Positions 14,400 through 64,000 of a stretch of DNA of 64,000 bases are shown here, one piece after another. The notes beneath the pieces were generated by a model. That model saw nothing but the letters and a program-made list of their open reading frames with translations, was not told the DNA's origin and ran no database searches. Position numbers and translations under genes: made by a program. The stretch lies in the IMG/VR virus record IMGVR_UViG_3300034082_003579. One strand, 5' to 3'. Within the stretch, counting starts at the first letter, position 1. Every line of letters starts with the position of its first letter. This DNA is from a virus. Taxonomy: Duplodnaviria > Heunggongvirae > Uroviricota > Caudoviricetes.

Positions 14400-14719
14400 T
14401 GGAATTTCAACTTAAAAAATAATTCGTTTTGTTCTGTTAATCTTGCTGCAATACAGTACCGATATCCATACGTGTACTGATCAACTCGACGATGCCATTG
14501 CGGCAGCTCTACACTGTGTTCCATAACCCACATACCAGCTTCGCTGTGCTGCCACGCCAGTAATGGGTCAGCAGCATAGATATCAGGATCCTCTACATCG
14601 CCTATGGAAAATTCGTGTACAATAACGGTAGATATCTTAACTGGTTTGTCGTCTACAAGTTGCCACTGAGTCTCATTGTTAACAACGGCGTAGGTAGGAA
14701 ACTGCTTGATACGAGCCAT
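14396..14719 (-). CDS. hypothetical protein (C-terminus ELFFKLKFQ, related to the small-ORF family)
   Basis: 107-aa ORF, translationally coupled. Confidence 0.4.
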   Translation of the reverse strand: MARIKQFPTYAVVNNETQWQLVDDKPVKISTVIVHEFSIGDVEDPDIYAADPLLAWQHSEAGMWVMEHSVELPQWHRRVDQYTYGYRYCIAARLTEQNELFFKLKFQ

Positions 14720-16675: not shown

Positions 16676-17947
16676 TTAGTTTTCTTCGTACAAGGCCCAA
16701 ACACCAAATGGTGGGTCGGGATTCTTGTCGCCGTGGATAACCCAAGTAGTATCGCAGTAGTTGGGATCACCCCATGAGCCGCACGGGTAGCCGTCTGTGA
16801 ACACAATCAACTTCTTGGGTTCAATAGCTTGGGCTTTGAGGAAGTTGAATATGGCATCAAAGTCAGTGCCACCACCGCCTTGCAAGTCATACTCGCTGAT
16901 ATCGTCCAAGTTATCGCTGGTAAACAAGTGCAGGTTGTACACTTCGGTATCAAAACAGGCAACATGGATACGATAGTCTTCAAACGTTTCCATGATACCT
17001 TTGATTTCACTTAGGAAGTCGCGGCCTTGTTCGGTTGAGATCGATCCCGACAGGTCGATAAACACAGCAATGTCAATGGCTTCTTGTGTTTTCATACCAG
17101 GCATGACAGCATCCATGTCCCAGCCCTTGCGACCCGACTTCATCCACGTATAGTCGCTCTTGACTGTGCTTTGGATTTGCTGCATGATCAGTTCGCGCCA
17201 GTTCAACTTGTGCTCAGTCAAATTCTGAATCAAACGCTTGACACCAGCTGGCAAGTTACCAGCATCACATGTCTGAGCGGCGCTCAACATGGCTTCCTTG
17301 ATCTCATCGCGGATGGCAGCACGTTCTTCATCAGTAAGACGAGGACGTCCTTTGCTGTTGCCGTCACGGCCAGTACCGCTTTCGGTGTCACCGTCGTCTT
17401 CCATGTGATCGTCCAACATCTTGTTGACAAGATCTTCAATGTCAATTTTTTCGGCGTTTGCGTACAAGTCGTCGTAGACTTCTTCGGCACTCATACCATC
17501 GTACTTGACATCATACAGGCAAGGAACCGACGTAATGAATTCACCAATGCGGTGCTTTTTCAAGTCAGCATTATTGCAGTAGTCGCCGGCCACGTTCCAC
17601 AGCTTGGGATGACGATCACCGCAGCGACCAAAATGGTCATAGATCACATGCAGGATTTCGTGTCCAAACAAGAATTCAACTTCCTTGGGACGCAGCATTT
17701 TGATAAAGCGAGTGTTGTAATAAAAGTTTCTACCGTCGGTAGCAGCAGTAGCACACCATTCGTCGGCATTGACCAACTTTAGTCTAGTGGCCAAGTTACC
17801 AAAGAAACTGGCACGAAGCAACATGCCAACTCGTGCTGTAATAAGAATTTCACGAACTTCGCGATCTACTTTTGGGTCTGTTGGGCCAATCAAATCAGCA
17901 AAACGCTTGGCGTCATTTTTGTTGGCAGTGTCTGTTGCTGTAGTCAT
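16676..17947 (-). CDS. VWA-domain protein with HExxH metallopeptidase-like motif (MoxR partner)
   Basis: HEILHVIYDH motif; MIDAS-like DLSGSIS; sits next to a MoxR-type ATPase. Confidence 0.65.
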   Translation of the reverse strand: MTTATDTANKNDAKRFADLIGPTDPKVDREVREILITARVGMLLRASFFGNLATRLKLVNADEWCATAATDGRNFYYNTRFIKMLRPKEVEFLFGHEILHVIYDHFGRCGDRHPKLWNVAGDYCNNADLKKHRIGEFITSVPCLYDVKYDGMSAEEVYDDLYANAEKIDIEDLVNKMLDDHMEDDGDTESGTGRDGNSKGRPRLTDEERAAIRDEIKEAMLSAAQTCDAGNLPAGVKRLIQNLTEHKLNWRELIMQQIQSTVKSDYTWMKSGRKGWDMDAVMPGMKTQEAIDIAVFIDLSGSISTEQGRDFLSEIKGIMETFEDYRIHVACFDTEVYNLHLFTSDNLDDISEYDLQGGGGTDFDAIFNFLKAQAIEPKKLIVFTDGYPCGSWGDPNYCDTTWVIHGDKNPDPPFGVWALYEEN

Positions 17948-17977
17948 TTATATAACTCCGTGTTTTCAGTATAATAC

Positions 17978-18006
17978 ATTATAGCATGACCTGAATTACC
18001 GGTCAA
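17978..18006 (-). promoter_or_regulatory. sigma70-like phage promoter TTGACC-N17-TATAAT
   Basis: minus-strand TTGACCggtaattcaggtcatgcTATAAT upstream of the VWA gene. Confidence 0.6.
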
Positions 18007-18388
18007 TCGGATTTGCCAGTTGAAAGAACACAAGTTCCGGGTCAGACTTGACGTAGATACGTAAGTCACTGTAACCATTGGTCCACGACCAATAAGGATT
18101 ACAACTGACAGGAAGATCTGGTGCAGCTGGTATACCCAAGGGGTGATTATTACCAAACTTCTTGATCATTCGTTGGGTTATGTTTTGATTCATACCAACC
18201 CAACGGTGCATATCAGAGTATTGGCGTATTTCAGCTGACCAACCGTATGTTTGTATAAACCATTGCAGGCAATGGTCAAAGTTCAAGGGACCTTGATCGT
18301 TGCTCATCTGATGGCTGAAACCAATATAGTATTGGAACCAATTGCAATAAGAGAATCTACCGTCGAGACGTTGTATAGTGTATTTCAT
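17996..18388 (-). CDS. hypothetical protein (small-ORF family-like C-terminus)
   Basis: 130 aa; C-terminal ELVFFQLANPIDR. Confidence 0.4.
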   Translation of the reverse strand: MKYTIQRLDGRFSYCNWFQYYIGFSHQMSNDQGPLNFDHCLQWFIQTYGWSAEIRQYSDMHRWVGMNQNITQRMIKKFGNNHPLGIPAAPDLPVSCNPYWSWTNGYSDLRIYVKSDPELVFFQLANPIDR

Positions 18389-18711
18389 CTTGAGTATTTA
18401 AGACCAAAAATGATAGCGTCTTCGATATCTCTAAAGTGAAAATCTAATATCCAGACGTTTGGTTCGTTTTCGTCTGGAACCAAATATCTCCACCGCTTCT
18501 TGTCCCGCCACTTGGGAAATTCTCGCCTAATTTTTACAAGGAAATCTTGCACTTGGTCATGATTGTACGGGTCAAAAGTAACCCTTACACGGTGAGGTTG
18601 GGGAGGGGGCTGACACCCCTCTTCCCTGAGTACTGCTTTAATGTCAGCCCCCATACTCTTACGAGTTAGCACCCAAAATGTATTTTCCGTAACGCTGATG
18701 GAATTCATCAA
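18385..18711 (-). CDS. hypothetical protein (small-ORF family member)
   Basis: 108 aa; C-terminal EDAIIFGLKYSR. Confidence 0.4.
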   Translation of the reverse strand: MMNSISVTENTFWVLTRKSMGADIKAVLREEGCQPPPQPHRVRVTFDPYNHDQVQDFLVKIRREFPKWRDKKRWRYLVPDENEPNVWILDFHFRDIEDAIIFGLKYSR

Positions 18712-19747
18712 AATTCTTCAGCTTGGTTGGCTGGAACGGCAGCTGGTATGTGGTCAGTGCAATTCTAGCACCCATAACAACCAACTCGGTTTCGAAGTTC
18801 TTCATCATGTAAGCAAAGAAGTTGTCGGCCATTTCGTGGAACTCTTTGTCTGTGACCTTGCGCTCAATAGCAGACTTGAGCTCGTAGCACAAGCTGATGA
18901 CCAGGCTGTACATGGCACTGACTTCTTTGACATCCAACTCCTTGGCCTTGCCCGACAAGATATCTTCGGGCTTGGGCAAGCGTCCGGCAATCTTGCGATG
19001 TGCCATGTACTTGACAGCAAGACCTTCGCCAATGGTACCGGCAATAAGGTCAGTTGCAGTAGAGTCATCAATGTCGTTGTCTTCCATCAACTGGCTGACA
19101 AAGCTCCACGAACGCGGTGTAGCAAAAGCACGTGAGCTGGACTTGGCATCAAAATCGTACAAGTCCTGCTTGGCGAAGGTCAAGTAACCAACAACATCCT
19201 TGTGGATATTGTTTAACACTGCCCATTCTTGCCAGCTAGGGAAGTCCACCTTCATTTCAACGTGAACAAAACGGTTTGCCAACGGAGTAGGCATACGATA
19301 AGTAACACCCTTGTCGCTTTCGCGGTTGCCAGCAGCAATCATGACCACATTGTCAGGCAACACATACTTGCCCATTCTGCGATTCAGTACCAGCTGATAA
19401 GCAGCAGCCTGCACACCCGGAGGAGCTGAGTTCATTTCGTCCATAAACAGGACTATGATGGGATACTGACTGGCAAGTTCTGCATCTGGCAGGTCGATCG
19501 GAGGTGCCCAATCCATCTTGCCCAGTTCCTTGTTGTAAAACGGAATACCACGAATGTCTGTGGGATCCATCTGACCCAGGCGCAAGTCAATCATGAATCC
19601 GCCTAGCTCTCGAGCAATATCAGCAACAACTTCGCTCTTGCCGATGCCTGGAGGACCCCACAAGAACAAAGGACGCTGAGATTTAAAACACTTGACGATA
19701 GCGCGACGAGCTTGTTGCGCAGTAACGGTACGATTGTCTGCTGACAT
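18659..19747 (-). CDS. MoxR/CobS-like AAA+ ATPase
   Basis: Walker A LFLWGPPGIGKSEV; 362 aa MoxR-size; paired with the VWA protein. Confidence 0.8.
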   Translation of the reverse strand: MSADNRTVTAQQARRAIVKCFKSQRPLFLWGPPGIGKSEVVADIARELGGFMIDLRLGQMDPTDIRGIPFYNKELGKMDWAPPIDLPDAELASQYPIIVLFMDEMNSAPPGVQAAAYQLVLNRRMGKYVLPDNVVMIAAGNRESDKGVTYRMPTPLANRFVHVEMKVDFPSWQEWAVLNNIHKDVVGYLTFAKQDLYDFDAKSSSRAFATPRSWSFVSQLMEDNDIDDSTATDLIAGTIGEGLAVKYMAHRKIAGRLPKPEDILSGKAKELDVKEVSAMYSLVISLCYELKSAIERKVTDKEFHEMADNFFAYMMKNFETELVVMGARIALTTYQLPFQPTKLKNFDEFHQRYGKYILGANS

Positions 19748-29055: not shown

Positions 29056-31146
29056 TCACTTGGTTGTAGCTATAAAAATTCCAGACCAGTCGGCTGGTAA
29101 CTTTTGTGTCTTTTGGAACTCGCAGCGTTCAATCCACATGTCATAGTAATCGGTCATTTGACCATCGAACTCTGATTTAAGTTCTTGACAAAGATCGATA
29201 GCTTGATCAAATTCCTGTGCTCGATACAGACGATGCATTTCGTCGTGTGTTGTCTGTGCCATTAAGTATTCTGTCATGGCACCTGCATCAGTATCTAATA
29301 CTGTGTGTATACCAACTCCGACTGATTTGCCTTTGACAGCCAAGTCATCAATCTTGAGAAACAAGAACGAATCGCCGCATTGCTTGACTGTGTTCTCTCC
29401 AACTAACAGTACACAACCATATTCTTTACACTTGCTTTCAATACGAGCTGCAGTACTTACAGCGTCACCCAACACATCATAACTGTGTCGTGCAGTTGAT
29501 CCCATTTCGCCGATGTAGCCTAGGCCTGTGTTGATACCTGCACCCATCTTGACCCCAGGGCGTCCTTTGGCTTCTAATTCTTGACTGAACTCTTTGACTG
29601 CTTGAACCATCTTGAGTCCCACTGCCACAGCAGTCTTTGCATGATCCGGATCATCTATAGGAGCGTTGTGTATGTGCATACTTGCATCACCAATGTACTT
29701 GATGATCATACCGTTGGCTTCTAGTATTGGTCGAGTGATAGCATCCATGTAGCCGTTCATGACTTCTGTTAGGCCTTTGACATCGTCCCCAAAACTTTCT
29801 CCCAGGGGTGTAAAGCCACGCAGGTCACTGAAGCAGATTGATACTTCTTTCTTGACACCGTCTTTGATTAGACTGGGATTCTCTTGCAGCAGTCGAACCA
29901 CAGTAGGTGAAGCATAGCCAGCAAACTGTTTCTTAATAGCCTGCTTCTGCAAAAACTCACTTACAAACTTAACACCATAAGCATGCAGAAGAACAAGACC
30001 CAAGCCCACAGCGATAGCACTACTATCCACGAGCCAACTATAAGCAGAAAACAAATATAAGCTACTACCGACACTGCCAGCAAGCACGACAACAGCAGAA
30101 ATAATTCCAACATAAACCCACCTTGTTAATATTAATAATATGATACTCAACACGACCAGTGCTACGATTTCAGCACCGTCTGCCCAGTCTGGTCTTTGGA
30201 TTGCAACACCGTTTAACAGGGTGCCTACCACTGCGGCCTGTACTGCATGAGGATGAACAGCACCTAAACTGGTTGCCACTGGATTACTGATACCAGCTGC
30301 AGTTGGACCTACAATGACCAGGGCACCATCAAACGATTCAGGTAACGTAGTTATAGTGGTTGAATGTGCAGTTTGGCTCCAATCAATCCATACCCGACCC
30401 AGGCTGTCAGTAGCAACAGGACCAAACTTGGGAATACGTATGCGTTCTACTCCTGACTCATTCAGTTTGACTTGAAATGTAGTATCAGATGCAGCCACTC
30501 GCATGATTTCAAATGCCAAGCTAGGGTACAAGTTATCGCCTACAGCAATCACCAACGGCATGCGTCTATTGACACCGTCTAATTCTGGCAAGGTATGAAC
30601 AGTTCCTACTCCCCGTGCCGATCGTTCTAATTCTAGGATGTTGGCGATCATGCCAGGATATGACACAATGCGATCCAAGTATTGCGATCCAATCACAGCA
30701 GATCCAGGTCTACGTGGAGTATTTTTATTTTGTTCAGCTGGAATATTAGGTAAGATTACCAGGTGCTTTTGCATTACAGACGACAATGCAGCATCGCCGC
30801 CGGCACGATCTGTTTCTGGCATCAGTACATTGAATACCACCAGACCAGCATCTCGGCGATACAGTTCTTCGATCAACTCAGCATATATTGTTCTGGGAAA
30901 GGGCCATTGGCCATGTTTGTTGATTGCAGCTTCGTCTATGTCCACAGTCCAAATTTCGTTGACAGTGGGAGACTGATTAACAATAAGTGTATCAAAATAT
31001 CGCAAGCGAACGCTTTCAACAAATGCAGGATCGGCCGCACGAATGCCTACAATCAAGGCCAGAGTAACAACCGCAGTCCAGGGACTTAGCAAGATCTTTT
31101 TTATCATAGGTTTATTTTGTAGTAGAGTCGCCAAACACGTACACAC
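29056..31146 (-). CDS. CHASE2 sensor-domain class III adenylate/guanylate cyclase
   Basis: 696 aa; N-terminal periplasmic domain plus TM helices; C-terminal ICFSDLRGFTPL...KYIGDASM cyclase homology domain. Confidence 0.7.
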   Translation of the reverse strand: MCTCLATLLQNKPMIKKILLSPWTAVVTLALIVGIRAADPAFVESVRLRYFDTLIVNQSPTVNEIWTVDIDEAAINKHGQWPFPRTIYAELIEELYRRDAGLVVFNVLMPETDRAGGDAALSSVMQKHLVILPNIPAEQNKNTPRRPGSAVIGSQYLDRIVSYPGMIANILELERSARGVGTVHTLPELDGVNRRMPLVIAVGDNLYPSLAFEIMRVAASDTTFQVKLNESGVERIRIPKFGPVATDSLGRVWIDWSQTAHSTTITTLPESFDGALVIVGPTAAGISNPVATSLGAVHPHAVQAAVVGTLLNGVAIQRPDWADGAEIVALVVLSIILLILTRWVYVGIISAVVVLAGSVGSSLYLFSAYSWLVDSSAIAVGLGLVLLHAYGVKFVSEFLQKQAIKKQFAGYASPTVVRLLQENPSLIKDGVKKEVSICFSDLRGFTPLGESFGDDVKGLTEVMNGYMDAITRPILEANGMIIKYIGDASMHIHNAPIDDPDHAKTAVAVGLKMVQAVKEFSQELEAKGRPGVKMGAGINTGLGYIGEMGSTARHSYDVLGDAVSTAARIESKCKEYGCVLLVGENTVKQCGDSFLFLKIDDLAVKGKSVGVGIHTVLDTDAGAMTEYLMAQTTHDEMHRLYRAQEFDQAIDLCQELKSEFDGQMTDYYDMWIERCEFQKTQKLPADWSGIFIATTK

Positions 31147-34599: not shown

Positions 34600-35610
34600 T
34601 TACTTTGCGATCTTGGTCCAAACTTTGTTACGAATTTGGTCAGTTAACGTGTCTGGCAGTGCTACATAGTCCAGCTCTGATGCCATGGTCTTACCGTTCT
34701 TAAATGCCCAGTCAAAAAACTCGATGACTTCAGCTGAGGCTTTTGGATCAGCAGGTTTGGCATATACTAATATAAAACTGGCACCGGCAATAGGCCAACT
34801 CTTAGCACCGGCAGCATCTATAATACTGATACCCATACCTGGCTTACTGAACCAATCAGCGTCGGCTGCTGCAGCGGCAAATGATTCTTCGTTGGGATTT
34901 ACATAGTGTCCATCACGATTCTGCAATTGAAGGTATTTGATATTGTTCTTTTTAGCATAGGCGTATTCCACATAGCCAATAGCACCTTTAACTCGCGTCA
35001 CGTTAGCAGCGACACCTTCGTTGCCTTTACCACCAACTGAACTGGCTGCAGGCCATTTGACAGCATTGCCTTTGCCAACACTGTCTGCCCAGGATTTGCT
35101 GACTGTAGTCAAATAGTCAGTGAAGTGATAGGTAGTGCCGGATCCGTCAGCACGATGTACCACTGTGATATTTTGATCGGGCAGTCTCTTGCCTGGATTT
35201 AGTGCTGCTATCTTAGCGTCATTCCATTTTGTGATTGTGCCTTGATAAATGTCAGCTAACACTGGTCCAGTTAGTCTCAGTTCGCCTTGCTTGAAACCGT
35301 CCAAGTTAGCAATTGGAACGACTCCGCCAAGAATGGCTGGAAACTGTAGTAAGCCATTCTTGTCCAACGCATCACCTGATACAGGAGCATCACTTGCACC
35401 AAACATTACAGTCTTGTTGACAATTTGTCTAACACCACCGGAACTGCCAATTGATTGATAATTGAATCTGATACCTGTTTCTTTGTTGTAAACTTCTGCC
35501 CATTTGGCATAGATGGGATATGGAAATGTTGCACCGGCGCCTGTGATTTGTTGTGCCGATGCTGCGAATGTGGATGCTGCTAGTAATAGTAATGCCAATA
35601 TCTTTTTCAT
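34600..35610 (-). CDS. pstS: phosphate-binding protein PstS
   Basis: signal peptide; QITGAGATFPYPIYAKWA and ADGSGTT blocks typical of PstS. Confidence 0.85.
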   Translation of the reverse strand: MKKILALLLLAASTFAASAQQITGAGATFPYPIYAKWAEVYNKETGIRFNYQSIGSSGGVRQIVNKTVMFGASDAPVSGDALDKNGLLQFPAILGGVVPIANLDGFKQGELRLTGPVLADIYQGTITKWNDAKIAALNPGKRLPDQNITVVHRADGSGTTYHFTDYLTTVSKSWADSVGKGNAVKWPAASSVGGKGNEGVAANVTRVKGAIGYVEYAYAKKNNIKYLQLQNRDGHYVNPNEESFAAAAADADWFSKPGMGISIIDAAGAKSWPIAGASFILVYAKPADPKASAEVIEFFDWAFKNGKTMASELDYVALPDTLTDQIRNKVWTKIAK

Positions 35611-35682: not shown

Positions 35683-36774
35683 TTATTTTTGTACAATTGT
35701 AATTACTGTATTGCCGCCTTGGTTTACTTGTTGTTTGACTTGTACTCCGCCTTGATTGATATTGATCACAGCATTGGACTCTGTGCTGACAGTGACTTCG
35801 GCAATATGACCCGGTCGCCGATATAGAGTAATTTTACTTTTGTCATCGTTGAAGTAATATCCGATGTTGGTGGCAGGATTATAATTGGGCAGAATATTTT
35901 TTTCGAAAGCATTGCCCAGTGTTGTTTTATTCTGTGCCGACAATTCGTCTGTTTCAGCTAGAGCCAATAGATCGACTTCTAAGTCATTGCGATCGATTGC
36001 GTTCTTTTCGTCTAACTCATTCTTATCCAACTCTTTAAATGCCAACAAATCCACGTCAAGCTCATTCTTATCCAACTCAGTCTTGTCCGACCGATACGCA
36101 GTTTCTTTAATTTCCGCCGGCGGACTTACAATCAACATGTTGTTGATGTTGGCCTGATCAATTGAAATCACGGCAGGGGTAGACGGAGCCGAATTCAAAC
36201 TGTTGACCACTGTAGCTTGATAGGCCACATCCAACAACACACTTCCTGCTTCGTTGGAAACTAAGATGGCACCAGTCACACACCCTTTTTTATCGCAGCT
36301 GGGCAATAACATAACCAAACTACGACCCAATTCATCCACGGTCATGGAAAAGTCTGTGCCACGCACTGCTACAGTAGCAGTGGGAGTTCGTACGTTGACT
36401 GCCTGTGGATTATTTTTAGCAATCTGGCCAGACGCATAGCGTGCTGTGCCCAGTGCAACTCGCATGGCCAACTTGCCTGTGCCTTTTGAAGCGTCGTATA
36501 CAAAGTCATCAATCACCAACTTACTCTGCTCAGTTATTTTGACCGTGGTTTTATCGTCAAACGACAAAGTAACACGACTTTTAGCAGTGGTCACTGTGTC
36601 CTGCATCTCAACTGCTGTGTTGATCGAACTCTCAACACTTTTTTTGTTTCTTAGAATTTCTGTAGGGCCAGTCTGCTCAGTTACTCGCCCTACAGGAGCT
36701 GCAGAATTAATTGGACTGAGTAACAGTAATAGCGTTGTTGTTACCAGTCGAAGTAATAGTTGCTTGTTGTGCAT
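35683..36774 (-). CDS. FecR-domain secreted protein
   Basis: signal peptide; ATVAVRGTDFSMTV FecR-type motif. Confidence 0.45.
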   Translation of the reverse strand: MHNKQLLLRLVTTTLLLLLSPINSAAPVGRVTEQTGPTEILRNKKSVESSINTAVEMQDTVTTAKSRVTLSFDDKTTVKITEQSKLVIDDFVYDASKGTGKLAMRVALGTARYASGQIAKNNPQAVNVRTPTATVAVRGTDFSMTVDELGRSLVMLLPSCDKKGCVTGAILVSNEAGSVLLDVAYQATVVNSLNSAPSTPAVISIDQANINNMLIVSPPAEIKETAYRSDKTELDKNELDVDLLAFKELDKNELDEKNAIDRNDLEVDLLALAETDELSAQNKTTLGNAFEKNILPNYNPATNIGYYFNDDKSKITLYRRPGHIAEVTVSTESNAVININQGGVQVKQQVNQGGNTVITIVQK

Positions 36775-37318
36775 TGGTTCCGCCTTGTGTCAAGCTGATG
36801 GTATTGCCACCGAGTGCTATTCCGCCAGTGACAGTTATGATTCCAGAATGTGCACCAGAACCTGACGTGGTATGTGTCACTGTGTTCTCATCTCCAGTGA
36901 TCAAGATCTCACTGTGTTGAGTAGCAGATGCAACCAAGTTTTGTGTCACTGTGTTGTTGTCACCAGTGACTTGTTGTTTGATGAAACTGCTGCCGCATGT
37001 GGCACTGTTGGCAGTGCCACAATTGATCACCTGTGTGTTGTTACTGCCAGTGGTGGTCACAGTTGCAGTGATTGCAGCACCATTGATGATCATGTCCAAG
37101 GTATTAGAGCTACCAATTTGATCAATAGTTACTATATTGGCATCGCCTTTGATTATAGAAGGCGTGCCTTCGTCACCTACACGATTACTGCTGCCATCCT
37201 GCGTTATAGTAACAGTGGCACCAGACCCTACTTGTTCTATATAAACATCATTTGCTTGAGCTGTAGTCACCCAAGCCAGGGCAGCGATTACTGCCATTAT
37301 TCCAAAACGTTTAAGCAT
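36707..37318 (-). CDS. curlin-repeat (CsgA/CsgB-like) secreted protein
   Basis: signal peptide then tandem S/N/Q/G/T-rich ~22-aa repeats of curlin type; adjacent to csgG/csgF homologs. Confidence 0.45.
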   Translation of the reverse strand: MLKRFGIMAVIAALAWVTTAQANDVYIEQVGSGATVTITQDGSSNRVGDEGTPSIIKGDANIVTIDQIGSSNTLDMIINGAAITATVTTTGSNNTQVINCGTANSATCGSSFIKQQVTGDNNTVTQNLVASATQHSEILITGDENTVTHTTSGSGAHSGIITVTGGIALGGNTISLTQGGTNAQQATITSTGNNNAITVTQSN

Positions 37319-37334
37319 TTCTTGCTCCTTTTTA

Positions 37335-38117
37335 TTATTTCTTAAAGCGCCATAGACCTGAACGTTCCCCGCTCATGATCATTTCATACACAGCTTGCTC
37401 GATGGCCACACGTACTGCATAAGTTGTGGGTTCATTTAAGGTTGCACCGTTTTCTAATTCTATGCTTTTGGTAGCAGAGTCAAAGAATTTAAGTGCGCCC
37501 AGGCTATGAGCTGTACTGTATATTGTTTTGGAGATACTGTTGCTGATCAACACTTCTCCCGAGTTAACTGATATGAGTCTAATGCTCACTACTACTTCGT
37601 CAACTCGATACTGTTGGCTTCCGCCTATGCCCATAATTCTGGCACCGTTGCCGCCTGTTCTAATGTTGCTGTCATATCCAATGATACCACCTTCGATTAT
37701 GAGTCCGGCAACTGTCATAGGCTTGAGAGGCTTGGCATCTTTACCTTCGTAAATTTCTCGTTGATTACGTATCAACTGACGTTCCTTGATAAGGTTGTCT
37801 AGACCCACCCGCTCAACCACACGAAACCATCCTGGCACATCCTTTAGGCTCTTGATCAAGAACACTTCGGCACCTTGTGTCACTGCCTTGCTGAATACAG
37901 CCAACTTTTCATTGGGTTTCAACTGTCCTGTCTTGTCTGAGAAGCCGTATACTGCCACAGTGATTACAGGACCATCTAGCGGAGGAATCTTTTCAATCAG
38001 ACTCACTCGTGGTTTAATTTCTACAGGCTCCTCACGAGCTGCATTCATGTGAATCTGAGCGCACCCGCTGACTAAAGCAAGTACAAGTATGGCTAAGATA
38101 CGCATGTTAAAACGCAA
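37335..38117 (-). CDS. csgG: curli production/transport lipoprotein CsgG
   Basis: lipobox LVSGC; ITVAVYGFSDKTGQ matches the CsgG hallmark block. Confidence 0.8.
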   Translation of the reverse strand: MRFNMRILAILVLALVSGCAQIHMNAAREEPVEIKPRVSLIEKIPPLDGPVITVAVYGFSDKTGQLKPNEKLAVFSKAVTQGAEVFLIKSLKDVPGWFRVVERVGLDNLIKERQLIRNQREIYEGKDAKPLKPMTVAGLIIEGGIIGYDSNIRTGGNGARIMGIGGSQQYRVDEVVVSIRLISVNSGEVLISNSISKTIYSTAHSLGALKFFDSATKSIELENGATLNEPTTYAVRVAIEQAVYEMIMSGERSGLWRFKK

Positions 38118-39243: not shown

Positions 39244-40407
39244 TTAGAACTGGTGACGCAAGCCAACACCGACTACAGTGCTCTTGGCAGTGTCAACAGT
39301 AGCCAGGTTATCCATGTAACTCACGTAAGCATACGCATTGGTGCGCTTGGTGAAATCATATGTATAGCCCAGGTTGTAAGCTGACTGATTCTGTGCATTG
39401 TAAACATCTTTCATGTTGGTGTTGGGAGTCAACAAGGTCCAGCTGACCATGACACGGCTTGTGGCGTTGACTGGAACTGTGGCACCCAGCAAGTAGCTGT
39501 TGTAACCCATGTTCTGATCAAAGATCACTTCGCCTGTGTTGTTGGATGGATTGCCATTCAAGTTAACACCAGCACCGGTAGCACCGTTGCCCTGACCCAG
39601 AATGTAACCACCGCGTGTCTGACCGTAAGCTGCTGACAATTTAACAACTTTCAGATCATATGCACCACCCAAGTTCCATGAACTGGGGTTGCTCTGACTG
39701 ATTGATGCCGAAGGTGCATAAATCTTGTCATAGGACAAAGCAGCGTAAACAGGGCCATTGGTGTAGTTGGCACCCAATGACAGCTGGCGAACGTTGTTGT
39801 TGGTTTCAAAGTTGTAACCACTGGAACCGGCTACTGCACTAGCACCGTCGATTGCTGTGTTGCTCATGCCATTAGCAAATGAGTAAGCAGCACCTGCACG
39901 GAATCCTGCCATCGAGGGTGACTGATATTTGACAGCATTGCTCATGCGCAAGGTATTGGCTGCACCGAATGCTGCACCAATGTTGGCTTGTCCAAAGCCT
40001 TGACTGAACGGGTCAACTGCACCAAAATAGTCAGTGGCCAAGTTGTATTGACGACCGATACGGGCCAAGCCCCAAGCATCGTTTTCCACACCCAAGTAAG
40101 CCTGACGACCAAACAGTCGATTAGATTGACCGTTGGTACCATTACCTAATTCAAATCCGTTTTCTAAAACAAAAGTAACGCGGTTACCGTTGCCAATGTC
40201 TTCAACGCCACGCAGACCAAAACGGTTGCCACTTTGTACGCCGTATGCTGCACCAAAGTTTGATGCAGACGCACCTTGCAAGCTCACTGTTTGATAACGA
40301 ATTCCAGCATCTAGAATGCCGTACAAGGTAACAGATGATTGAGCTGTAGCTGCAAAGCTCAGGCCCATTGTGGCCGTTAGTACTGCTAGTTTATGAGTAA
40401 CTTTCAT
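39244..40407 (-). CDS. Gram-negative porin
   Basis: signal peptide; beta-strand-alternating composition; C-terminal ...GLRHQF (terminal Phe). Confidence 0.6.
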   Translation of the reverse strand: MKVTHKLAVLTATMGLSFAATAQSSVTLYGILDAGIRYQTVSLQGASASNFGAAYGVQSGNRFGLRGVEDIGNGNRVTFVLENGFELGNGTNGQSNRLFGRQAYLGVENDAWGLARIGRQYNLATDYFGAVDPFSQGFGQANIGAAFGAANTLRMSNAVKYQSPSMAGFRAGAAYSFANGMSNTAIDGASAVAGSSGYNFETNNNVRQLSLGANYTNGPVYAALSYDKIYAPSASISQSNPSSWNLGGAYDLKVVKLSAAYGQTRGGYILGQGNGATGAGVNLNGNPSNNTGEVIFDQNMGYNSYLLGATVPVNATSRVMVSWTLLTPNTNMKDVYNAQNQSAYNLGYTYDFTKRTNAYAYVSYMDNLATVDTAKSTVVGVGLRHQF

Positions 40408-41050: not shown

Positions 41051-41293
41051 TTATTTATTCTCTACTTCCGGCGGACGTTCACGACGATCCAAGGTCCTGG
41101 GTTTGAGCAGATAATCACGACCAATATTGCCTGCTTCGATTTCTCTAATGGCAGTAACCACAAGATCGTTTTTGCACTGCACTGTAGGAAACCATCCGCG
41201 TTTGAGTTCACGTACACGTCTAGCAGCAATTAACACTAGATCATACTGGTTGCCTACAGCTAGAGCAGCTCGCTGACTGGTAATTCTGGCCAT
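41051..41293 (-). CDS. rpoZ: RNA polymerase omega subunit homolog
   Basis: MARITSQRAALAVGNQYDLVLIAARRVRELK aligns with E. coli RpoZ [31 protein letters not shown]; start set at the internal Met of the longer track ORF. Confidence 0.7.
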   Translation of the reverse strand: MARITSQRAALAVGNQYDLVLIAARRVRELKRGWFPTVQCKNDLVVTAIREIEAGNIGRDYLLKPRTLDRRERPPEVENK

Positions 41294-41352: not shown

Positions 41353-41592
41353 TCAACTCCAGGAGATGACAAATAAGGTACGGTCTTGGTCCCAACGAAA
41401 CGCTACACCAAGTTGGTACGTAGTACCGCTGTCGGCCCAGGCCCAGTGTGTGAAATGACCACCCACACGATTGTTTAGCCAATGCTCTACAGTTCTGATA
41501 CCCAACTCCCAATCTAACTGAGCCTGCTCAAAACTGGGCCAAGGTACAGAAGCTGAATATTCAAATGAGTGTCGGTCTATCAGCATCCGCAT
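41353..41592 (-). CDS. hypothetical protein (small-ORF family; C-terminus TLFVISWS)
   Basis: 79 aa. Confidence 0.4.
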   Translation of the reverse strand: MRMLIDRHSFEYSASVPWPSFEQAQLDWELGIRTVEHWLNNRVGGHFTHWAWADSGTTYQLGVAFRWDQDRTLFVISWS

Positions 41593-43742: not shown

Positions 43743-43832
43743 TGGCGGAGCGTCAGGGAGTCGAACCCTGTGAGCGTATTACTACACTCTACAGATTAGC
43801 AATCTGCTGCCTTACCATCCGGCCCACGCTCC
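43743..43832 (-). tRNA. tRNA-Ser(GCT)
   Basis: perfect acceptor ggagcgt/acgctcc, anticodon stem gcaga/tctgt, loop uuGCUaa, long variable arm, T-loop ttcgact. Confidence 0.75.
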
Positions 43833-44278
43833 AATTGTTCTACTTCAATACCGCACGACTTTAAAAACTGTACTCCGGCGTTGTCTCTATAGGCCGATCC
43901 AAAATACACACGACGGATACCGCTTTGATATATCAGTTTAGCGCAGTCGATACAAGGAGCGTGAGTGATAAACATAACACTGCCGTCTCCGGATTCACTG
44001 CTGCGAGCCAACTTCGAAATTGCGTTTGATTCTGCATGCAACACCTCTGGTTTGGTTTTTAGTACTATCCTATGTATAGAACCTTCAAATCCTGCATACG
44101 GTTCCACGCTTTCATCTTCACAGTTGTTATCCCAACCTGCTGGCATACCGTTGTAGCCAATGCTAATGATACGATCATCTTTGACCACAATGGCACCAAC
44201 ATGCAATCGCCTGGCGTGGCTGAGTTCTGCAAATGTCTCTGCAGTCCGCATGTAAGCTTCAAGTAAATTGGGTTTCAT
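43796..44278 (-). CDS. dCMP (deoxycytidylate) deaminase
   Basis: HAESNAI and PCIDCAKLI zinc-binding CDA motifs; 3' end overlaps tRNA-Ser(GCT). Confidence 0.8.
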   Translation of the reverse strand: MKPNLLEAYMRTAETFAELSHARRLHVGAIVVKDDRIISIGYNGMPAGWDNNCEDESVEPYAGFEGSIHRIVLKTKPEVLHAESNAISKLARSSESGDGSVMFITHAPCIDCAKLIYQSGIRRVYFGSAYRDNAGVQFLKSCGIEVEQLERGPDGKAADC

Positions 44279-45917: not shown

Positions 45918-47033
45918 TTGATGCTTATAAATAAATTTTTAATTGGTGACAAAATGTCTTTTATATGTAAAGCGCCGTGGACTAGTATTGCTTTTCAACC
46001 AACCGGTGTTGCTCCTTGTTGCATGTATCAGCTTGATGAACTAGAAGAATTCCGCAGCGACGGGAAACTTTTCCAAAAAATACGAGATTCATTTACTGAC
46101 GGAATTGTTCCCACTGGTTGCGTTCGATGTTCTAGTCGAGTAAATCAAGGAAATGAAGAATCGGCTTACTTCAAATCATTTAATCATTACACAACCAATT
46201 TTTCTACTCAGTCTATTCAAGAAATAAATCTAAGGTCAAATAATTTTTGTAATTTAGCATGCCGAAGTTGCGGCCCACATTTTAGTTCTAAGTGGGAAAA
46301 AGAATTTAAAGAAACAATCGTTATTACCAAAGACTCGGACGTATTTTCTAAGATTGATACTTTAGATCTATCTGTACTCAAAACTATAGTATTCGCCGGC
46401 GGCGAACCAACTATTGTACCTGAGCATGTCCAACTGTTGAAAAAACTAATATCTATTAATCATACTCGGGTTAATATTCGAGTAGCTACAAATTTACAAA
46501 CATTAACAAACAAGAATGTTAACTTAATTGACTTATGGAAGAATTTTCCAAATCTTATATTACATATAAGCATTGATGCAGTCGGTAATAATGCCGTTAA
46601 TATTAGATCAGGAACCAATTGGGAGACAATGGTATCTAACATAGAAAAAGTTAGTAAAAATAATATAGATTTTAATTTTGCTATTACTGTAAGTGCATTG
46701 AATATCTGGTTTCTAGAAAAAACGCTTGACTATCTAACAGAAACATTTCCAAAAAACAATAAATTATTACAATTACTTAATACACCAGACATATTAGATA
46801 TCTCGGTTATTCCGCCAAAATACCGAGACTCGATAAATCAAATGCTTAAATCATGCCAGCAAAAAAAATACGAAGTTAATCACATTAAACATTATTTTGA
46901 TAATAATGATACCTCTCAATTTTGGCAAAATTTTTTAACCTATAATCTATTTTTAGATGTAAATCGCCAAGAAAATTTTTGTCAATCTTTGCCGATATAT
47001 GATCAACTGATGATAGACTGGGTACATCTTTAA
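45918..47033 (+). CDS. radical SAM domain protein (paralog of 3962..5380)
   Basis: CNLACRSCGP CxxxCxxC motif; embedded in the tRNA island. Confidence 0.6.
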   Translation: MMLINKFLIGDKMSFICKAPWTSIAFQPTGVAPCCMYQLDELEEFRSDGKLFQKIRDSFTDGIVPTGCVRCSSRVNQGNEESAYFKSFNHYTTNFSTQSIQEINLRSNNFCNLACRSCGPHFSSKWEKEFKETIVITKDSDVFSKIDTLDLSVLKTIVFAGGEPTIVPEHVQLLKKLISINHTRVNIRVATNLQTLTNKNVNLIDLWKNFPNLILHISIDAVGNNAVNIRSGTNWETMVSNIEKVSKNNIDFNFAITVSALNIWFLEKTLDYLTETFPKNNKLLQLLNTPDILDISVIPPKYRDSINQMLKSCQQKKYEVNHIKHYFDNNDTSQFWQNFLTYNLFLDVNRQENFCQSLPIYDQLMIDWVHL

Positions 47034-58239: not shown

Positions 58240-60188
<1,949 letters not shown>

Positions 60189-60283: not shown

Positions 60284-60628
60284 TCAACGCCAAGTCCTAT
60301 GTCTTTCGGCAATCCACTCGTGTCCGTCGTACTCTTGTATGATCCAGTCCACATCGGCTGGAACTTCTACAATTTTGAGTTGAGCAAAAGAATCTTCGGC
60401 TCGTTCGCCCCATTCTTCGATCAATCGCACCAGATAAGGATCGTCGCGATCAATGTCTTGATCGGTAAAATCAGGATCTTCGATGCAGGCCATGCGCTTG
60501 TATTCTTCTACTGCTGCTTCACTGAGGCCATAGCCACCAAAACAGTCGTTGATAACAATCTTGCGTATACCACGCAGGTGCTGCATTAATCGTTCTTTGT
60601 CCAGATTGCTTATTGTGGCCATTTGCAT
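60284..60628 (-). CDS. hypothetical protein
   Basis: 114-aa ORF, first of the tandem small-ORF array. Confidence 0.4.
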   Translation of the reverse strand: MQMATISNLDKERLMQHLRGIRKIVINDCFGGYGLSEAAVEEYKRMACIEDPDFTDQDIDRDDPYLVRLIEEWGERAEDSFAQLKIVEVPADVDWIIQEYDGHEWIAERHRTWR

Positions 60629-60792
60629 ACAAATAAAAAACTGTCTCGTTTGTTTTGAAAAACAAAAGTGGTCATGTCAGCAGAGAATTTTACTTGCCAT
60701 GTTCCGGCTCGCAAATTTTGCTTACACCACAACATCATGTCTTGTACTGCGTTATCATTGTAGCGATTTACTATGACATCGGTCATACCCAC
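60610..60792 (-). CDS. small-ORF family member
   Basis: C-terminus DSFLFVCKWPQ. Confidence 0.35.
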   Translation of the reverse strand: MGMTDVIVNRYNDNAVQDMMLWCKQNLRAGTWQVKFSADMTTFVFQNKRDSFLFVCKWPQ

Positions 60793-61010
60793 CTCAACGC
60801 AAACATGGTATAATCTTCATCTAGCATGTATACTTCTCCCAGTTGATTCATTGGCATTACATATACATTTATGCCGTACCATTCCTGCATCCACAGTTTA
60901 ATGTGATACGAACCAACTGCAGCACTAGGATCGATGTGCTTGTTTATGCGGGCAGTTATGTCTAGCCAAAATTTAGGGTACAACATGAGATTGACACGTT
61001 TCATGACCAC
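60783..61010 (-). CDS. small-ORF family member
   Basis: C-terminus DYTMFALRWV. Confidence 0.4.
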   Translation of the reverse strand: MVMKRVNLMLYPKFWLDITARINKHIDPSAAVGSYHIKLWMQEWYGINVYVMPMNQLGEVYMLDEDYTMFALRWV

Positions 61011-61243
61011 CTTAGAAAAAATAGCGTTAACAGTTCCGGAGTATCAAATTCCACAATCATGCCTATTCGTTTGGCTCCGGGATTGTTAGCACACCAAGCG
61101 TCCAACTTTTCAACATGCTCAGACCAGAAGGCAATGTCGGTTAGATATACTGTATTGTCCTTATCTACGTCATGTTCGGTCACAATAAACCTCTGCTTTT
61201 TCCAGTCAGCAAATATGTCATCTTGATATTGATTAACGGTCAT
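61001..61243 (-). CDS. small-ORF family member
   Basis: C-terminus PELLTLFFLRWS. Confidence 0.4.
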   Translation of the reverse strand: MTVNQYQDDIFADWKKQRFIVTEHDVDKDNTVYLTDIAFWSEHVEKLDAWCANNPGAKRIGMIVEFDTPELLTLFFLRWS

Positions 61244-61517
61244 TCTGCACGTATTCGTTGTACTTCAGTATGAAAAAAGTTCTTTTGACTTCATCATACC
61301 AGTCAAGATAGACGCAGTTTCGATAGTAGCCGTCTCGGCGGTGAACAGAAACAACTTCGTTAGGTCCAGGTATGTGCCATTTGGCATGTTGCCTGACTGT
61401 AAAGCCCAGTTCTCTGCGCATGACAGATCTTATCATCAAATGACTAGGCGGATGATCTTGACTCAAGCGTTGGTGTAGATTGTTCCATTGTCCTGTTGTT
61501 AATCGAGTGGGTTTCAC
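61233..61517 (-). CDS. small-ORF family member (extended C-terminus)
   Basis: ..TFFILKYNEYVQNDR. Confidence 0.4.
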   Translation of the reverse strand: MKPTRLTTGQWNNLHQRLSQDHPPSHLMIRSVMRRELGFTVRQHAKWHIPGPNEVVSVHRRDGYYRNCVYLDWYDEVKRTFFILKYNEYVQNDR

Positions 61518-61520
61518 AAA

Positions 61521-62072
61521 TTACTCCGGCAACTTTTCCAACATGTCATTGAATATCTCAGCACTCATGTCAAACGCCAGTAGTGCTTCGTCTAAGATCG
61601 ACATTGTGAGTTTGGCATCTAATGCCTTTATCAGTGCGGGACAATCATTGAATTGGTAACACTTGCCCTTTCCAGGTATTTTTTTGGCTAAAATTTTACC
61701 GCCATACAAATCTCTCATGTGCCGAACATAGATGTGGGCTAGAATCTGATCCCCGTGTCCGGAGTAATACAGTTTCATAATGTGTTCTCGGTATCGCTGT
61801 GTGCTGGGCAATACTTCTTCTAGACTAGGTATGTTGTGTCCCAGTTCTGCAAGATCTTCTGCAATTCCGTCTTTTCTTTTGATGCCAGGCAGATCGTGCA
61901 ACAACCCTAAGGTCTCTGCAAAGTACTCAATCTCTCTATAAACAATATAAAACTGTTTGAGAAACAAAACATATTGTTCTTTGGTAATTTCTCCAGTCAG
62001 CATCAACTGAACAAAAGGATTGGCTTCAACTGCTCGGTGTTTCTCATTTGTGTAATTTCTTAATATGCTCAT
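61521..62072 (-). CDS. heme-oxygenase-like / TenA-fold protein
   Basis: KHRAVEANPFVQLMLTGEITKEQYVLFLKQFYIVYREIE resembles the HO N-terminal helix pattern (H..E..F......Y...L.Q.Y.VY..LE). Confidence 0.4.
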   Translation of the reverse strand: MSILRNYTNEKHRAVEANPFVQLMLTGEITKEQYVLFLKQFYIVYREIEYFAETLGLLHDLPGIKRKDGIAEDLAELGHNIPSLEEVLPSTQRYREHIMKLYYSGHGDQILAHIYVRHMRDLYGGKILAKKIPGKGKCYQFNDCPALIKALDAKLTMSILDEALLAFDMSAEIFNDMLEKLPE

Positions 62073-62106
62073 TTTGTTGTTCCTGTACTGTTATTAAACA
62101 AACACT

Positions 62107-62310
62107 TTACGACCATCTCAATTGAAATATTACAGCGTCTTCGGGATTTTCAAATTCTACCCAAGGGTAAAAACTGTGGCGTTTTGCAGGAAACACTCCT
62201 TGCGTATATAGCCAATAACTAAATGCTTCGTTATCGCGGTTGCAATTAGCCAGCCACCATTCAGCAGCATTAACCCAGTAAGGTTCTATGGGTAATCGAG
62301 TCATGACCAT
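62107..62310 (-). CDS. small-ORF family member
   Basis: C-terminus EDAVIFQLRWS. Confidence 0.4.
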   Translation of the reverse strand: MVMTRLPIEPYWVNAAEWWLANCNRDNEAFSYWLYTQGVFPAKRHSFYPWVEFENPEDAVIFQLRWS

Positions 62311-62465
62311 CTCAATGTAAATAATAATGCATCTTGATCATTTTTAAACCAATATCCTTCGGCAGTATGATCCCAGTCATTTAACAATAAGGTATCACGA
62401 CACCATATAAAGACTTGAATATCAGAGGCACAGTCGAGAATAAAAGTCCATGATTCATTTCTCAT
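62301..62465 (-). CDS. small-ORF family member (about 50 aa, not in ORF track)
   Basis: ..NDQDALLFTLRWS; shares a 40-nt near-identical 3' segment with 62462..62719; ATGA start-stop overlaps on both sides. Confidence 0.35.
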   Translation of the reverse strand: MRNESWTFILDCASDIQVFIWCRDTLLLNDWDHTAEGYWFKNDQDALLFTLRWS

Positions 62466-62719
62466 GAGCATCTCAATGTAAATAATAATGCATCTTGTTC
62501 GTGATCAAAGCAGAATGTATACGATGCCAGACCGCCTCCATCCCATGTACATTGCCATGTTCCGTCACGCCCGAAAGTTTCGCGATCTGTGATGCTAAAT
62601 CTCTTTCCAAATTGGTCATGGCACCATTGACACATTCGTTCGATCTCGACCGCAGATGTTTGATGCATTATAACTTTATGTTCTAACCTGTGTTGTTTGT
62701 TAACTACGATCATGCCCAC
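62462..62719 (-). CDS. small-ORF family member
   Basis: C-terminus EQDALLFTLRCS. Confidence 0.4.
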   Translation of the reverse strand: MGMIVVNKQHRLEHKVIMHQTSAVEIERMCQWCHDQFGKRFSITDRETFGRDGTWQCTWDGGGLASYTFCFDHEQDALLFTLRCS

Positions 62720-63153
62720 CTCAGCAAAAACATTAGATAATCTCGTTCGTTTTTAAATGCAGCAAAAACCAAATCTTGACCACTGATTTCATTTATATCC
62801 CAATCGTATGTGCCCATTCGATTGTGATCAAATTTGTTTACACGATGAAAATCAAATCTTACTTTATCTTGACTATGCTCTTCAGCCCACTTATGAACTA
62901 CATTATGTCCGTATCTACAACCACCTGGACCGTAATCGGCTATCATTTGATAAATGTAATGGTTGTGATTTTCAAAACAGTAAACATGCGGATAGCCGTG
63001 ATAAAAGTCACGTATACAACAGGCACGAATGTTGTAGTCAGGATCATATATTCTATGATATTCTGCCCAAGAGGCGCATCCGTGTCGTTTTAAGAATCGC
63101 CGATCCTGCCATGCCTGCCACCGTTGTTTCAACCGTTGGAACATTACGCCCAT
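62710..63153 (-). CDS. small-ORF family member (147 aa)
   Basis: C-terminus ERDYLMFLLRWA. Confidence 0.4.
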   Translation of the reverse strand: MGVMFQRLKQRWQAWQDRRFLKRHGCASWAEYHRIYDPDYNIRACCIRDFYHGYPHVYCFENHNHYIYQMIADYGPGGCRYGHNVVHKWAEEHSQDKVRFDFHRVNKFDHNRMGTYDWDINEISGQDLVFAAFKNERDYLMFLLRWA

Positions 63154-63395
63154 CTCAACTGAAATAACACCGCATCCTGTTCAGTTTCAAACCAAAAGGA
63201 ATTGCCGGTCCATGTATAGTGATCCTGGCCGTACTGCTGAATACACCATTGGTGTGCAGGTTCCCACCGTGTTCGTAGTCCAATGTTCACTGGATACCAG
63301 CCGCCCTGCTTGAGATAGCTATACCAATCAAATAACTGTTCTTCGCTTGATTCAAGCGGGGCCAGGTCGATAAATTCTCGTATGCTCATGACCAC
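63144..63395 (-). CDS. small-ORF family member
   Basis: C-terminus EQDAVLFQLRWA. Confidence 0.4.
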   Translation of the reverse strand: MVMSIREFIDLAPLESSEEQLFDWYSYLKQGGWYPVNIGLRTRWEPAHQWCIQQYGQDHYTWTGNSFWFETEQDAVLFQLRWA

Positions 63396-63622
63396 GATAA
63401 CGCAAACAGCAATTTTGTATCCTCGTCCACGTGCTCGTTGAGTTCAATAGAGAATTCCGGCAACCGGAGGTGCCAATCGTCAGAATAATACTTTACCCAA
63501 CATTGCCATCCTTCTCCTCTTATTACAGTACCGACCGCACCGGATTGTTGTGGTCCTACATTTGTCATCAGCCACTGTACAGCACCACGAGCACGAACAG
63601 CATCGTATAATTTAATTTTCAC
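63386..63622 (-). CDS. small-ORF family member
   Basis: C-terminus EDTKLLFALSWS. Confidence 0.4.
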   Translation of the reverse strand: MKIKLYDAVRARGAVQWLMTNVGPQQSGAVGTVIRGEGWQCWVKYYSDDWHLRLPEFSIELNEHVDEDTKLLFALSWS

Positions 63623-63986: not shown

Positions 63987-64000
63987 GCCGTTCCTTACAG

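Follow-up and report, generated by a model that had tools for sequence, protein, structure and literature searches.

How can neighbouring genes differ so widely along their bodies and still finish on nearly the same residues? The question is raised by a 64,000-nucleotide (nt) stretch of tailed-phage DNA (Caudoviricetes; IMG/VR record IMGVR_UViG_3300034082_003579), hereafter the window, whose minus strand carries a run of small open reading frames (ORFs) between positions 63622 and 60610. An original prediction had described this run as eleven consecutive paralogues, each a hypervariable body on a fixed C-terminal anchor, and all of the ORFs that it listed are present with the endings it quoted. 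Our preferred explanation, which we consider probable as a whole, combines an unannotated family of small proteins, a shared domain, an ending that is coded for two purposes, cassette-like behaviour of the genes and a role of the proteins as binders. The region would then be a polycistronic, translationally coupled tandem array of paralogues from this family.

The likeness of the endings is real. A regular expression for the ending, F.[LIMC][RKS][WC].{0,2}-stop, matched 11 of the 1160 six-frame ORFs in the window, 10 of which are claimed members, against a mean of 0.49 and a maximum of 4 matches after shuffling of the residues; the endings thus exceed their shuffled controls, and the members fall into no family of the searched libraries. 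Leave-one-out profiles were built from ten genes, namely nine genes of the array (60610-63622) and a solo copy at 41353-41592. The omitted gene was always the best non-training ORF in the window, with an expectation value (E) below 0.01 in 8/10 cases; the weakest, at 63386..63622, reached E 0.77, yet ranked first. A hidden Markov model (HMM) iterated over 33 related loci scored the ten genes between E 1e-18 and 5e-5. All ten carry the whole-domain profile, that is, a Trp in helix 1 together with the ending F..F...DA..F.L(R/K)W, and they make up the family tally of the window.

The predicted run of eleven is therefore reduced to nine, the other two being a heme oxygenase-like gene (61521-62072) and a gene that the family HMM does not detect (61233-61517). 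Of the dispersed members that had been proposed, the copy at 41353-41592 is solid and 18385-18711 is borderline, while 14396-14719 (family HMM E 0.36) and 17996-18388 (E 1.9) are unsupported. Gene calls made independently by JGI and NCBI agree with the array ORFs and use ATGA starts. On the HMM tests and the ATGA junctions, the proposal of a paralogous family arranged for translational coupling holds.

The family is found well beyond this window. Using a subfamily of 147 amino acids (aa) as bait, 33 loci were recovered from IMG/VR, and over these loci and the window an iterated profile converged on 338 ORFs (294 non-redundant), arranged head to tail in 2-23 copies per locus and reaching 23 copies within about 20 kb. 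All 338 lie on the strand of the bait gene and in one frame, with 0 in the other five frames. A word-indexed search of 5.8 billion proteins returned only 'hypothetical' metagenomic proteins, some of them on contigs of 120-515 kb. When 1.84 billion cluster representatives were searched exhaustively with HMMER, 1,916 matched at E<=1e-3 (~1,900 clusters at 50% identity); among the 150 representatives listed, nearly all are 48-160 aa long, most match to the very C-terminus and a few are two-domain fusions.

As the prediction had supposed, no named domain accounts for these proteins. Searches of Pfam, PHROGs, NCBIfam, PADLOC and PDB sequences gave no meaningful match (none below E 0.03 in PHROGs, none in NCBIfam, and in PADLOC only two isolated weak matches at E 0.003-0.005, to one member each). 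Among GenBank phages there was no match to the region by megablast or to two family members by tblastn, and no relative in a cultured phage came to light. The 147-aa subfamily likewise gave no confirmed match when one genome per GTDB species was scanned, making a bacterial chromosomal origin of the family unlikely, and a literature search for a described family or for phage tandem arrays of small proteins found nothing specific. The family is one of small proteins (about 54-150 aa), restricted to phages, that come from uncultured large phages and are unnamed in curated libraries; a large phage-restricted family left aside by those libraries is hereby defined. The window itself probably belongs to the genome of a large uncultured phage, although it holds no structural phage gene; its MoxR/CobS-type ATPase is closest (51%) to that of the jumbo Pseudomonas phage PA5oct.

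The image of a hypervariable body on a fixed anchor does not survive the alignment, in which conservation covers the whole domain of ~50-65 residues. Across the 338 ORFs, Trp24 is conserved in 93%, Phe50 in 79%, Asp55 in 64% and Phe59 in 89%, and in the ending Leu61 reaches 92%, Arg62 64% (with Lys second) and Trp63 88%. A second conserved block, W[CL]..N.G, lies in a helix 25-45 residues before the ending, aromatic positions mark two short strands, and insertions fall mostly before helix 1, in the loop from helix 1 to the strand and in the hairpin loop. AlphaFold2 models of an 85-aa ORF (62462-62719; mean predicted local distance difference test, pLDDT, 62.9) and of the 54-aa gene at 62301-62465 (pLDDT 70.2), built on alignments of 115 and 144 sequences, have the same beta-alpha-beta-beta-alpha topology. 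Their overall confidence is moderate, and the C-terminal helix is the most confident segment of both (local pLDDT 75-82). The ending ..F.F..E.DA..F.L(R/K)W(S/A) is accordingly modelled as the last strand and an amphipathic helix of this domain; the C-terminus does not look like a free tag and is predicted to be part of the fold. Conserved positions are mainly those of the hydrophobic core and variable ones those of the surface and loops. The proteins are mildly acidic (median isoelectric point 5.7, 70% net negative), and the sequences inspected show neither a signal peptide nor transmembrane character.

A Foldseek search against the PDB gave no match, and a fold comparison with BFVD returned only uncharacterised proteins of uncultured phages, evidently homologues. 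Membership of the ferredoxin-like, ACT or DCoH superfamilies was considered and rejected, there being no PDB match by sequence profile or by Foldseek. Ferredoxin-like, ACT and DCoH/pterin-4a-carbinolamine dehydratase-like sandwiches share 5-12% sequence identity with the family, and the ferredoxin-like fold has a final strand that the family lacks; matches to alpha/beta sandwiches, a very widespread architecture, say nothing about function.

Some members are extended or doubled. Four metagenomic proteins (P0275, P0293, P0297 and P0318) hold two copies of the domain in a single polypeptide of 143-160 aa, as would follow from an occasional in-frame fusion at an ATGA junction. A search for fusions to known domains turned up only a few long N-terminal extensions, none of them identified. 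In two related loci (L012, 8946-9461, plus strand; L021, 11167-11610, plus strand) the extension contains a Walker-A-like 'GRQTGKS/QYTGKS', which to the eye looks like the beginning of a terminase or another ATPase and could be a fragment of a captured gene.

What, beyond the fold, keeps the last codons so constant? At the junctions of the array they typically read TTG AGG TGG TCA TGA (L R W S stop) or a close variant, and the ATG of the next gene is made of the last base of the final sense codon and the TG of the stop. At 60783..60797 on the minus strand, for example, the junction TTGAGGTGGGTATGA joins the L-R-W-V codons, containing a Shine-Dalgarno-like GAGGTGG, to an ATG that overlaps the TGA; equivalent minus-strand junctions can be read at 61001-61015, 62301-62315, 62462-62476, 62710-62724 and 63386-63400 (repeat families D2 and D4). 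All junctions had been predicted to overlap. Six in the window are indeed ATGA when the ATG is used and others overlap by 10-11 nt, but two are gaps of 34 nt and 3 nt. The family-wide junction consensus is TTGAGGTGGTCATGA: 267/338 members stop exactly at the end of the HMM, 321/338 within two residues of it, and the ATGA junction occurs in 127/225 exact-ending non-redundant members over all loci.

Codon choice at these positions departs strongly from that of the gene bodies. The Arg at -3 is AGG in 115/159 cases, against 93/971 (9.6%) of the Arg codons in bodies. In ATGA-coupled members AGG encodes 85% of these Arg residues, and 86% of the Leu codons at -4 end in G, compared with 35% of those in bodies. 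The final residue of ATGA members varies (S, A, T, L, E, Q, V) and is always an NNA codon, mostly TCA, which points to a constraint on the nucleotides and not on the peptide. The bias also falls with distance from the next start. Where the downstream start overlaps, Arg stands at -3 in 129/159 and 82% of the Arg codons are AGG; with a gap of 0-10 nt the values are 11/27 and 55%, with a gap of 11-60 nt 7/12 and 43%, and where no start follows within 60 nt Arg stands at -3 in 11/25 (Lys in 9/25) with 0/11 AGG, mostly CGA. The solo copy at 41353-41592, which ends ATC TCC TGG AGT TGA before a non-coding spacer and has no AGG/ATGA signature, fits this trend as an uncoupled gene. Since uncoupled members keep Arg or Lys and the Trp, the protein is constrained too.

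The favoured codons also make a strong predicted ribosome-binding site. Predicted pairing of the 17 nt before the ATG with the anti-Shine-Dalgarno sequence averages -9.5 kcal/mol, against -4.7 when the same peptides are recoded synonymously with the family's own codon usage (Mann-Whitney p = 7e-36), and the consensus TTGAGGTGGTC pairs at -14.1 kcal/mol with an assumed canonical 16S tail. Other window genes carry AAGGAG 5-7 nt before the ATG; aligned to the known 16S tail, GAGGTG-GTC-ATG would have the same spacing as these sites. Two superimposed constraints would thus act on the ending, the protein requiring that its last helix finish with a basic residue and a Trp, and the messenger RNA requiring GAGGTGG..ATGA when a gene follows. 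In the arrays the protein usually ends one residue past the Trp, and Leu-Arg-Trp-Xaa-stop is held as (T/C)TG AGG TGG NCA TGA, which would supply a strong Shine-Dalgarno sequence (GAGGTGG) and an ATG overlapping the TGA from which the next gene starts. Much of the fixity that had been ascribed to a peptide anchor, ...LRWS-stop, is hence found at the level of the nucleotides. We see here a natural example of a protein motif that protein folding and the signals for translating the following gene apparently hold in place together, and a warning that conserved C-terminal 'motifs' in operonic small proteins can be partly RNA-level.

The array differs in content between close relatives. Relative to strain L037, GroEL and GroES of the window are 97.6% and 97.9% identical and the shared family members 51-92%. 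The ratio of nonsynonymous to synonymous substitution rates (dN/dS) is 0.12-0.56 for the family and 0.04-0.05 for GroEL/GroES, which indicates purifying but weaker selection and also argues that the genes are real. L037 has two family members (68 and 58 aa) that the window lacks, and the window alone has those at 62462-62713, 62301-62465 and 61001-61243 and the heme oxygenase gene. The segment 63192-63150 matches L037 at both 10205-10246 and 10580-10622, which flank the two extra genes of L037, and 62348-62305 matches L037 at 11015-11058. The heme oxygenase gene sits exactly where L037 joins the flanking genes by ATGA, and it looks like a recent cassette-like insertion.

Throughout the comparison, the blocks of homology break at the conserved 30-45-nt 3' ends, which form direct repeats (~30-45 nt) at every gene boundary. 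Two neighbouring genes with unalignable bodies share such a tract at 62301-62336 and 62462-62497 (35/36 nt; 86% over 51 nt); the shared segment of the original prediction is therefore real, with its first coordinate slightly off. The breakpoints, seen in a single pair of strains, resemble the footprint expected of unequal recombination between repeated 3' ends. Same-strand paralogues, content that varies between close strains and, in this one pair, breakpoints in shared repeats are together the marks of a tandem family, and the near-identical tract and the differing gene content agree with the view that the array is still changing. Whole genes would be gained and lost between the 3'-end repeats, and the array would act as a set of self-expressing cassettes.

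The individual genes, all on the minus strand, illustrate both the shared domain and this turnover. From position 63622 the array opens with a 78-aa member (63386..63622; HMM E 5.5e-6) that has a GTG start, overlaps the upstream stop by 11 nt and ends ..LLFALSWS; its orthologues P0023 and P0027 begin MKIKLYD. The next (63144..63389; E 6e-13) has 81 aa when counted from the ATG of its ATGA overlap, the longest ORF extending to 63395; it ends ..EQDAVLFQLRWA and is 86% identical to its L037 orthologue (dN/dS 0.38). The gene at 62710..63153 (E 1.6e-11) represents the 147-aa subfamily, a start at 63144 (144 aa) being also possible, and in it a conserved N-terminal extension (RRFLKRHGC..YDPD..DFYHGYPYVYCFENH.H) precedes the family domain. 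In the subfamily this extension is strongly conserved and rich in His, Cys and Tyr (RRFLKRHGC, YDPD, DFYHGYPYVYCFENH.H), matches no known domain, and could be a metal-binding or a separate functional module.

Three members with ATGA starts follow. The first (62462..62713, 83 aa) ends ..QDALLFTLRCS, has the best HMM score (E 1.2e-18) and has no orthologue in L037. The second (62301..62465), which had been proposed as a member of about 50 aa, proves to be a minimal 54-aa form of the family (E 1.6e-10), ends ..QDALLFTLRWS and is likewise absent from L037. The third (62107..62304, 65 aa, E 3.8e-8) ends ..EDAVIFQLRWS before TAA, with a 34-nt gap downstream, and is 88% identical to its L037 orthologue (dN/dS 0.12). 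Beyond the gap lie the two genes that interrupt the family, the 183-aa heme oxygenase-like gene (61521..62072; Pfam PF01126, E 8.7e-18) and the 94-aa gene at 61233..61517, which ends ..DWYDEVKRTFFILKYNEYVQNDR. The latter is conserved in L037 (95% identity, dN/dS 0.18), and its hhalign match to the family covers no more than 20 columns (probability 73%); possibly it is distantly related, with only the last strand and helix in common.

The array closes with three further members. The gene at 61001..61243 (80 aa, E 5.2e-5) has an ATG start and an 11-nt overlap with the upstream stop and ends ..LLTLFFLRWS; its body is missing from L037, where homology picks up only at the last ~20 nt. Those at 60783..61004 (73 aa, E 3e-5) and 60610..60786 (58 aa, E 7.9e-10) have ATGA starts and end ..DYTMFALRWV and ..SFLFVCKWPQ. 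The former is identical to P0005, present on 15 contigs including NCBI records, and the latter has the orthologue P0002 and an L037 copy just 51% identical. Outside the array, the solo member at 41353..41592 (79 aa, E 1.5e-7; leave-one-out E 4.4e-6) ends ..TLFVISWS TGA, and the borderline relative at 18385..18711 (108 aa) ends ..FHFRDIEDAIIFGLKYSR. The latter scores E 0.0035 among 9,892 ORFs and aligns with the family by hhalign (probability 81%) over the last 21 columns only, that is, the C-terminal strand and helix.

Could the endings be explained more simply? One rival reading, built on the anchor of the original prediction, takes the ending for a peptide tag, ..F.LRW(S/A)-COOH, serving as a degron, a packaging or injection signal or a docking motif for one common partner on otherwise unrelated hypervariable bodies. 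Such a tag would agree with the ending being the most conserved part of the protein, with ~80% of members ending exactly one residue past the Trp, with the basic residue and Trp that uncoupled members retain, and with 61233-61517 and 18385-18711, whose N-terminal parts differ and which match the family over the last ~20 columns only. The bodies, however, are homologous (helix-1 Trp 93%, strand Phe 79%), leave-one-out detection succeeds on whole sequences, and AlphaFold2 puts the ending in a helix of the fold, its most confident segment. Codon bias tied to the downstream start moreover explains much of the 'RW-x-stop' fixity, and in ATGA junctions the last residue is varied but NNA-coded. We consider a tag unlikely. 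That the ORFs are not genes at all, or that the ending is a repeated non-coding DNA element read in frame, is very improbable and largely refuted, even though the ORFs are very short (54-85 aa) and carry no database annotation and their 3' ends behave as DNA repeats. Against it stand the dN/dS of 0.12-0.56 relative to the related strain, the 338 HMM ORFs on one strand and in one frame with none in the other five, the CGN codons by which members with no following start keep their Arg, the hydrophobic pattern shared by ~1,900 diverged clusters, and the same ORFs being predicted by independent gene callers.

A third possibility is that the 3' ends are kept alike by repeated gene conversion or unequal crossing-over, or that they contain a recombination-hotspot motif, the Shine-Dalgarno-like sequence being incidental. 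Neighbours with unalignable bodies do share a 36-nt tract that is 97% identical, gains and losses of genes between strains are bounded by conserved 3' ends, and most non-family ATGA junctions have no Shine-Dalgarno sequence. Yet the AGG/NNG bias extends across 294 non-redundant members at 33 loci with ~20-30% protein identity, far beyond a conversion tract; it tracks the proximity of the downstream start, with 0/11 AGG where none lies within 60 nt; and the favoured bases are those that maximise anti-Shine-Dalgarno pairing. Recombination as the sole cause seems to us slightly less probable even than a tag, and recombination at repeats is in any case compatible with the ribosome-binding-site interpretation and forms part of our preferred explanation.

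Several points weigh against that preferred explanation of a coupled array with a doubly coded ending. Translational coupling and use of the Shine-Dalgarno sequence are inferred from sequence statistics, the pairing energies assume a canonical 16S tail (GAUCACCUCCUUA) that may not be the host's, and some of the nucleotide conservation could come from gene conversion between 3' ends. A 5-mer Shine-Dalgarno sequence is present at 19% of the non-family ATGA junctions of these loci, against 62% for the family, so that such a sequence is not generally needed at ATGA junctions; high or independent initiation of each cistron behind the family's strong site is one possibility. The loci were found through one subfamily as bait, so that the copy numbers per locus reflect biased sampling. 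Confidence in the structure models is only moderate (pLDDT 63 and 70), and the biological role is drawn by analogy with other small, fast-evolving phage proteins.

With regard to that role, the proteins would consist of a conserved hydrophobic scaffold with a variable surface and loops and would evolve faster than their neighbours under purifying selection. We tentatively suggest that they could be diversified binders of host or rival-phage proteins during infection, with accessory, host-takeover or anti-defence functions, a role that we rate as possible rather than likely. Should the proteins prove to inhibit host systems, new binders could be drawn from the family in abundance. Only in close relatives do the GroES/GroEL genes, the heme oxygenase gene and the flanking 114- and 124-aa genes accompany the array, so that the context gives no functional clue. 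Counts of internal promoters and terminators in the region were not above the shuffled expectation, except for one strong promoter-like site before groES.

A still more doubtful proposal is that the conserved 3' end, with its helix codons, GAGGTGG and ATGA, is a portable cassette junction that would secure the prompt translation of any unit put behind it and supply the homology for unequal crossing-over. If true, it would let large phages shuffle, amplify and replace binders and capture foreign genes such as the heme oxygenase gene, and the array would be a recombination-driven, integron-like counterpart built into the protein's own C-terminus, in an arms race with host defences. The array as described here also offers a testable model for the growth and continued expression of accessory gene arrays in large phages.

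Other genes around the array and elsewhere in the window deserve mention. The GroES/GroEL genes occupy 58240-60188 on the minus strand, the GroEL being ~68% identical to gammaproteobacterial GroL. At 60287-60259 (minus strand) before groES, within the end of the 114-aa gene, lies a near-consensus sigma-70-type promoter-like site, TTGACA-17-TATATT with a TG extension (11/12 positions). Just upstream of the array, beyond the window end at 64000, the close relatives L035 and L037 carry genes for a phosphoribosyltransferase, a cytidylyltransferase-like nucleotidyltransferase, a 5'-3' exonuclease and a MazG/PRA-PH pyrophosphatase, which look like a block of nucleotide/NAD-type metabolism. Just downstream of the solo member, the gene at 41051-41290 (minus strand) matches RNA polymerase omega/Rpb6 (PF01192, E 1e-10); phage-encoded omega-like subunits are uncommon. 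The small ORFs 17996-18388 and 18385-18711 are flanked by genes for a MoxR/CobS-like AAA ATPase (phrog_1297, E 5e-100) and a CobT-like protein with DUF2201 metallopeptidase/VWA domains (16676-19747, minus strand).

The window also encodes CsgG (PF03783, E 4e-52), a curlin-repeat protein, a Gram-negative porin (E 4e-47), a PstS-like phosphate-binding protein and a FecR-domain protein; genes of this curli/envelope type lie at 36707-38117, 39244-40407, 34600-35610 and 35683-36774 (minus strand). Curli secretion and porin genes are unusual phage cargo and could point to the envelope type of the host. Signalling is represented, in this phage setting, by a 696-aa protein (29056-31146, minus strand) that joins a CHASE2 sensor to an adenylate/guanylate cyclase domain. 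A further set comprises ThyX thymidylate synthase, dCMP deaminase, a carbamoyltransferase and two radical SAM proteins (14747-15433 and 43796-44278, minus strand; 1219-2709, 3962-5380 and 45918-47033, plus strand). The window thus mixes nucleotide-metabolism genes of phage type with many auxiliary genes, and such auxiliary metabolic content is typical of very large phages.

How does the array compare with known systems? Small phage inhibitors, such as anti-CRISPR and anti-restriction proteins and early proteins of host takeover, resemble the family in small size, mild acidity, fast evolution, restriction to phages, clustering and variation between strains. The comparison is of the 'works like' kind only; no relationship of sequence or fold to a characterised inhibitor was found in the libraries searched, which held no anti-defence (Acr-type) set, and no adjacent aca-type marker gene was identified. 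Accordion-type families are known from the 'genomic accordions' of poxviruses and from the clusters of small non-essential early genes in T4-like hyperplastic regions. The array is like them in its same-strand tandem paralogues, in copy number and content that vary between strains, in divergence faster than that of flanking core genes and in repeat-bounded insertions and deletions. It is unlike them in that its bounding repeat is a coding 3' end with translation signals and is not intergenic, and its protein family is a different and unannotated one.

Coupled genes are well known to show overlaps of -4 and Shine-Dalgarno sequences that lie within the coding sequence of the gene upstream (PMC12548453, PMC2784483). 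The operons described in that review (PMC12548453) and genome survey (PMC2784483) likewise show the ATGA overlap of start and stop, a Shine-Dalgarno sequence that falls within the final codons of the preceding gene and is normally spaced when aligned, and synonymous codon choice shaped by it; in the array, coupling is predicted from the sequence. Unlike in those operons, the embedded Shine-Dalgarno sequence of the family coincides with the domain-defining Leu-Arg-Trp and repeats at every boundary, in arrays of up to 23 paralogues, and its strength far exceeds that seen at the remaining ATGA junctions of these genomes. Tandem accessory arrays, -4 overlaps and embedded Shine-Dalgarno sequences are each known separately; what is unusual here is a Shine-Dalgarno sequence placed on the signature residues of a protein family at every gene boundary.

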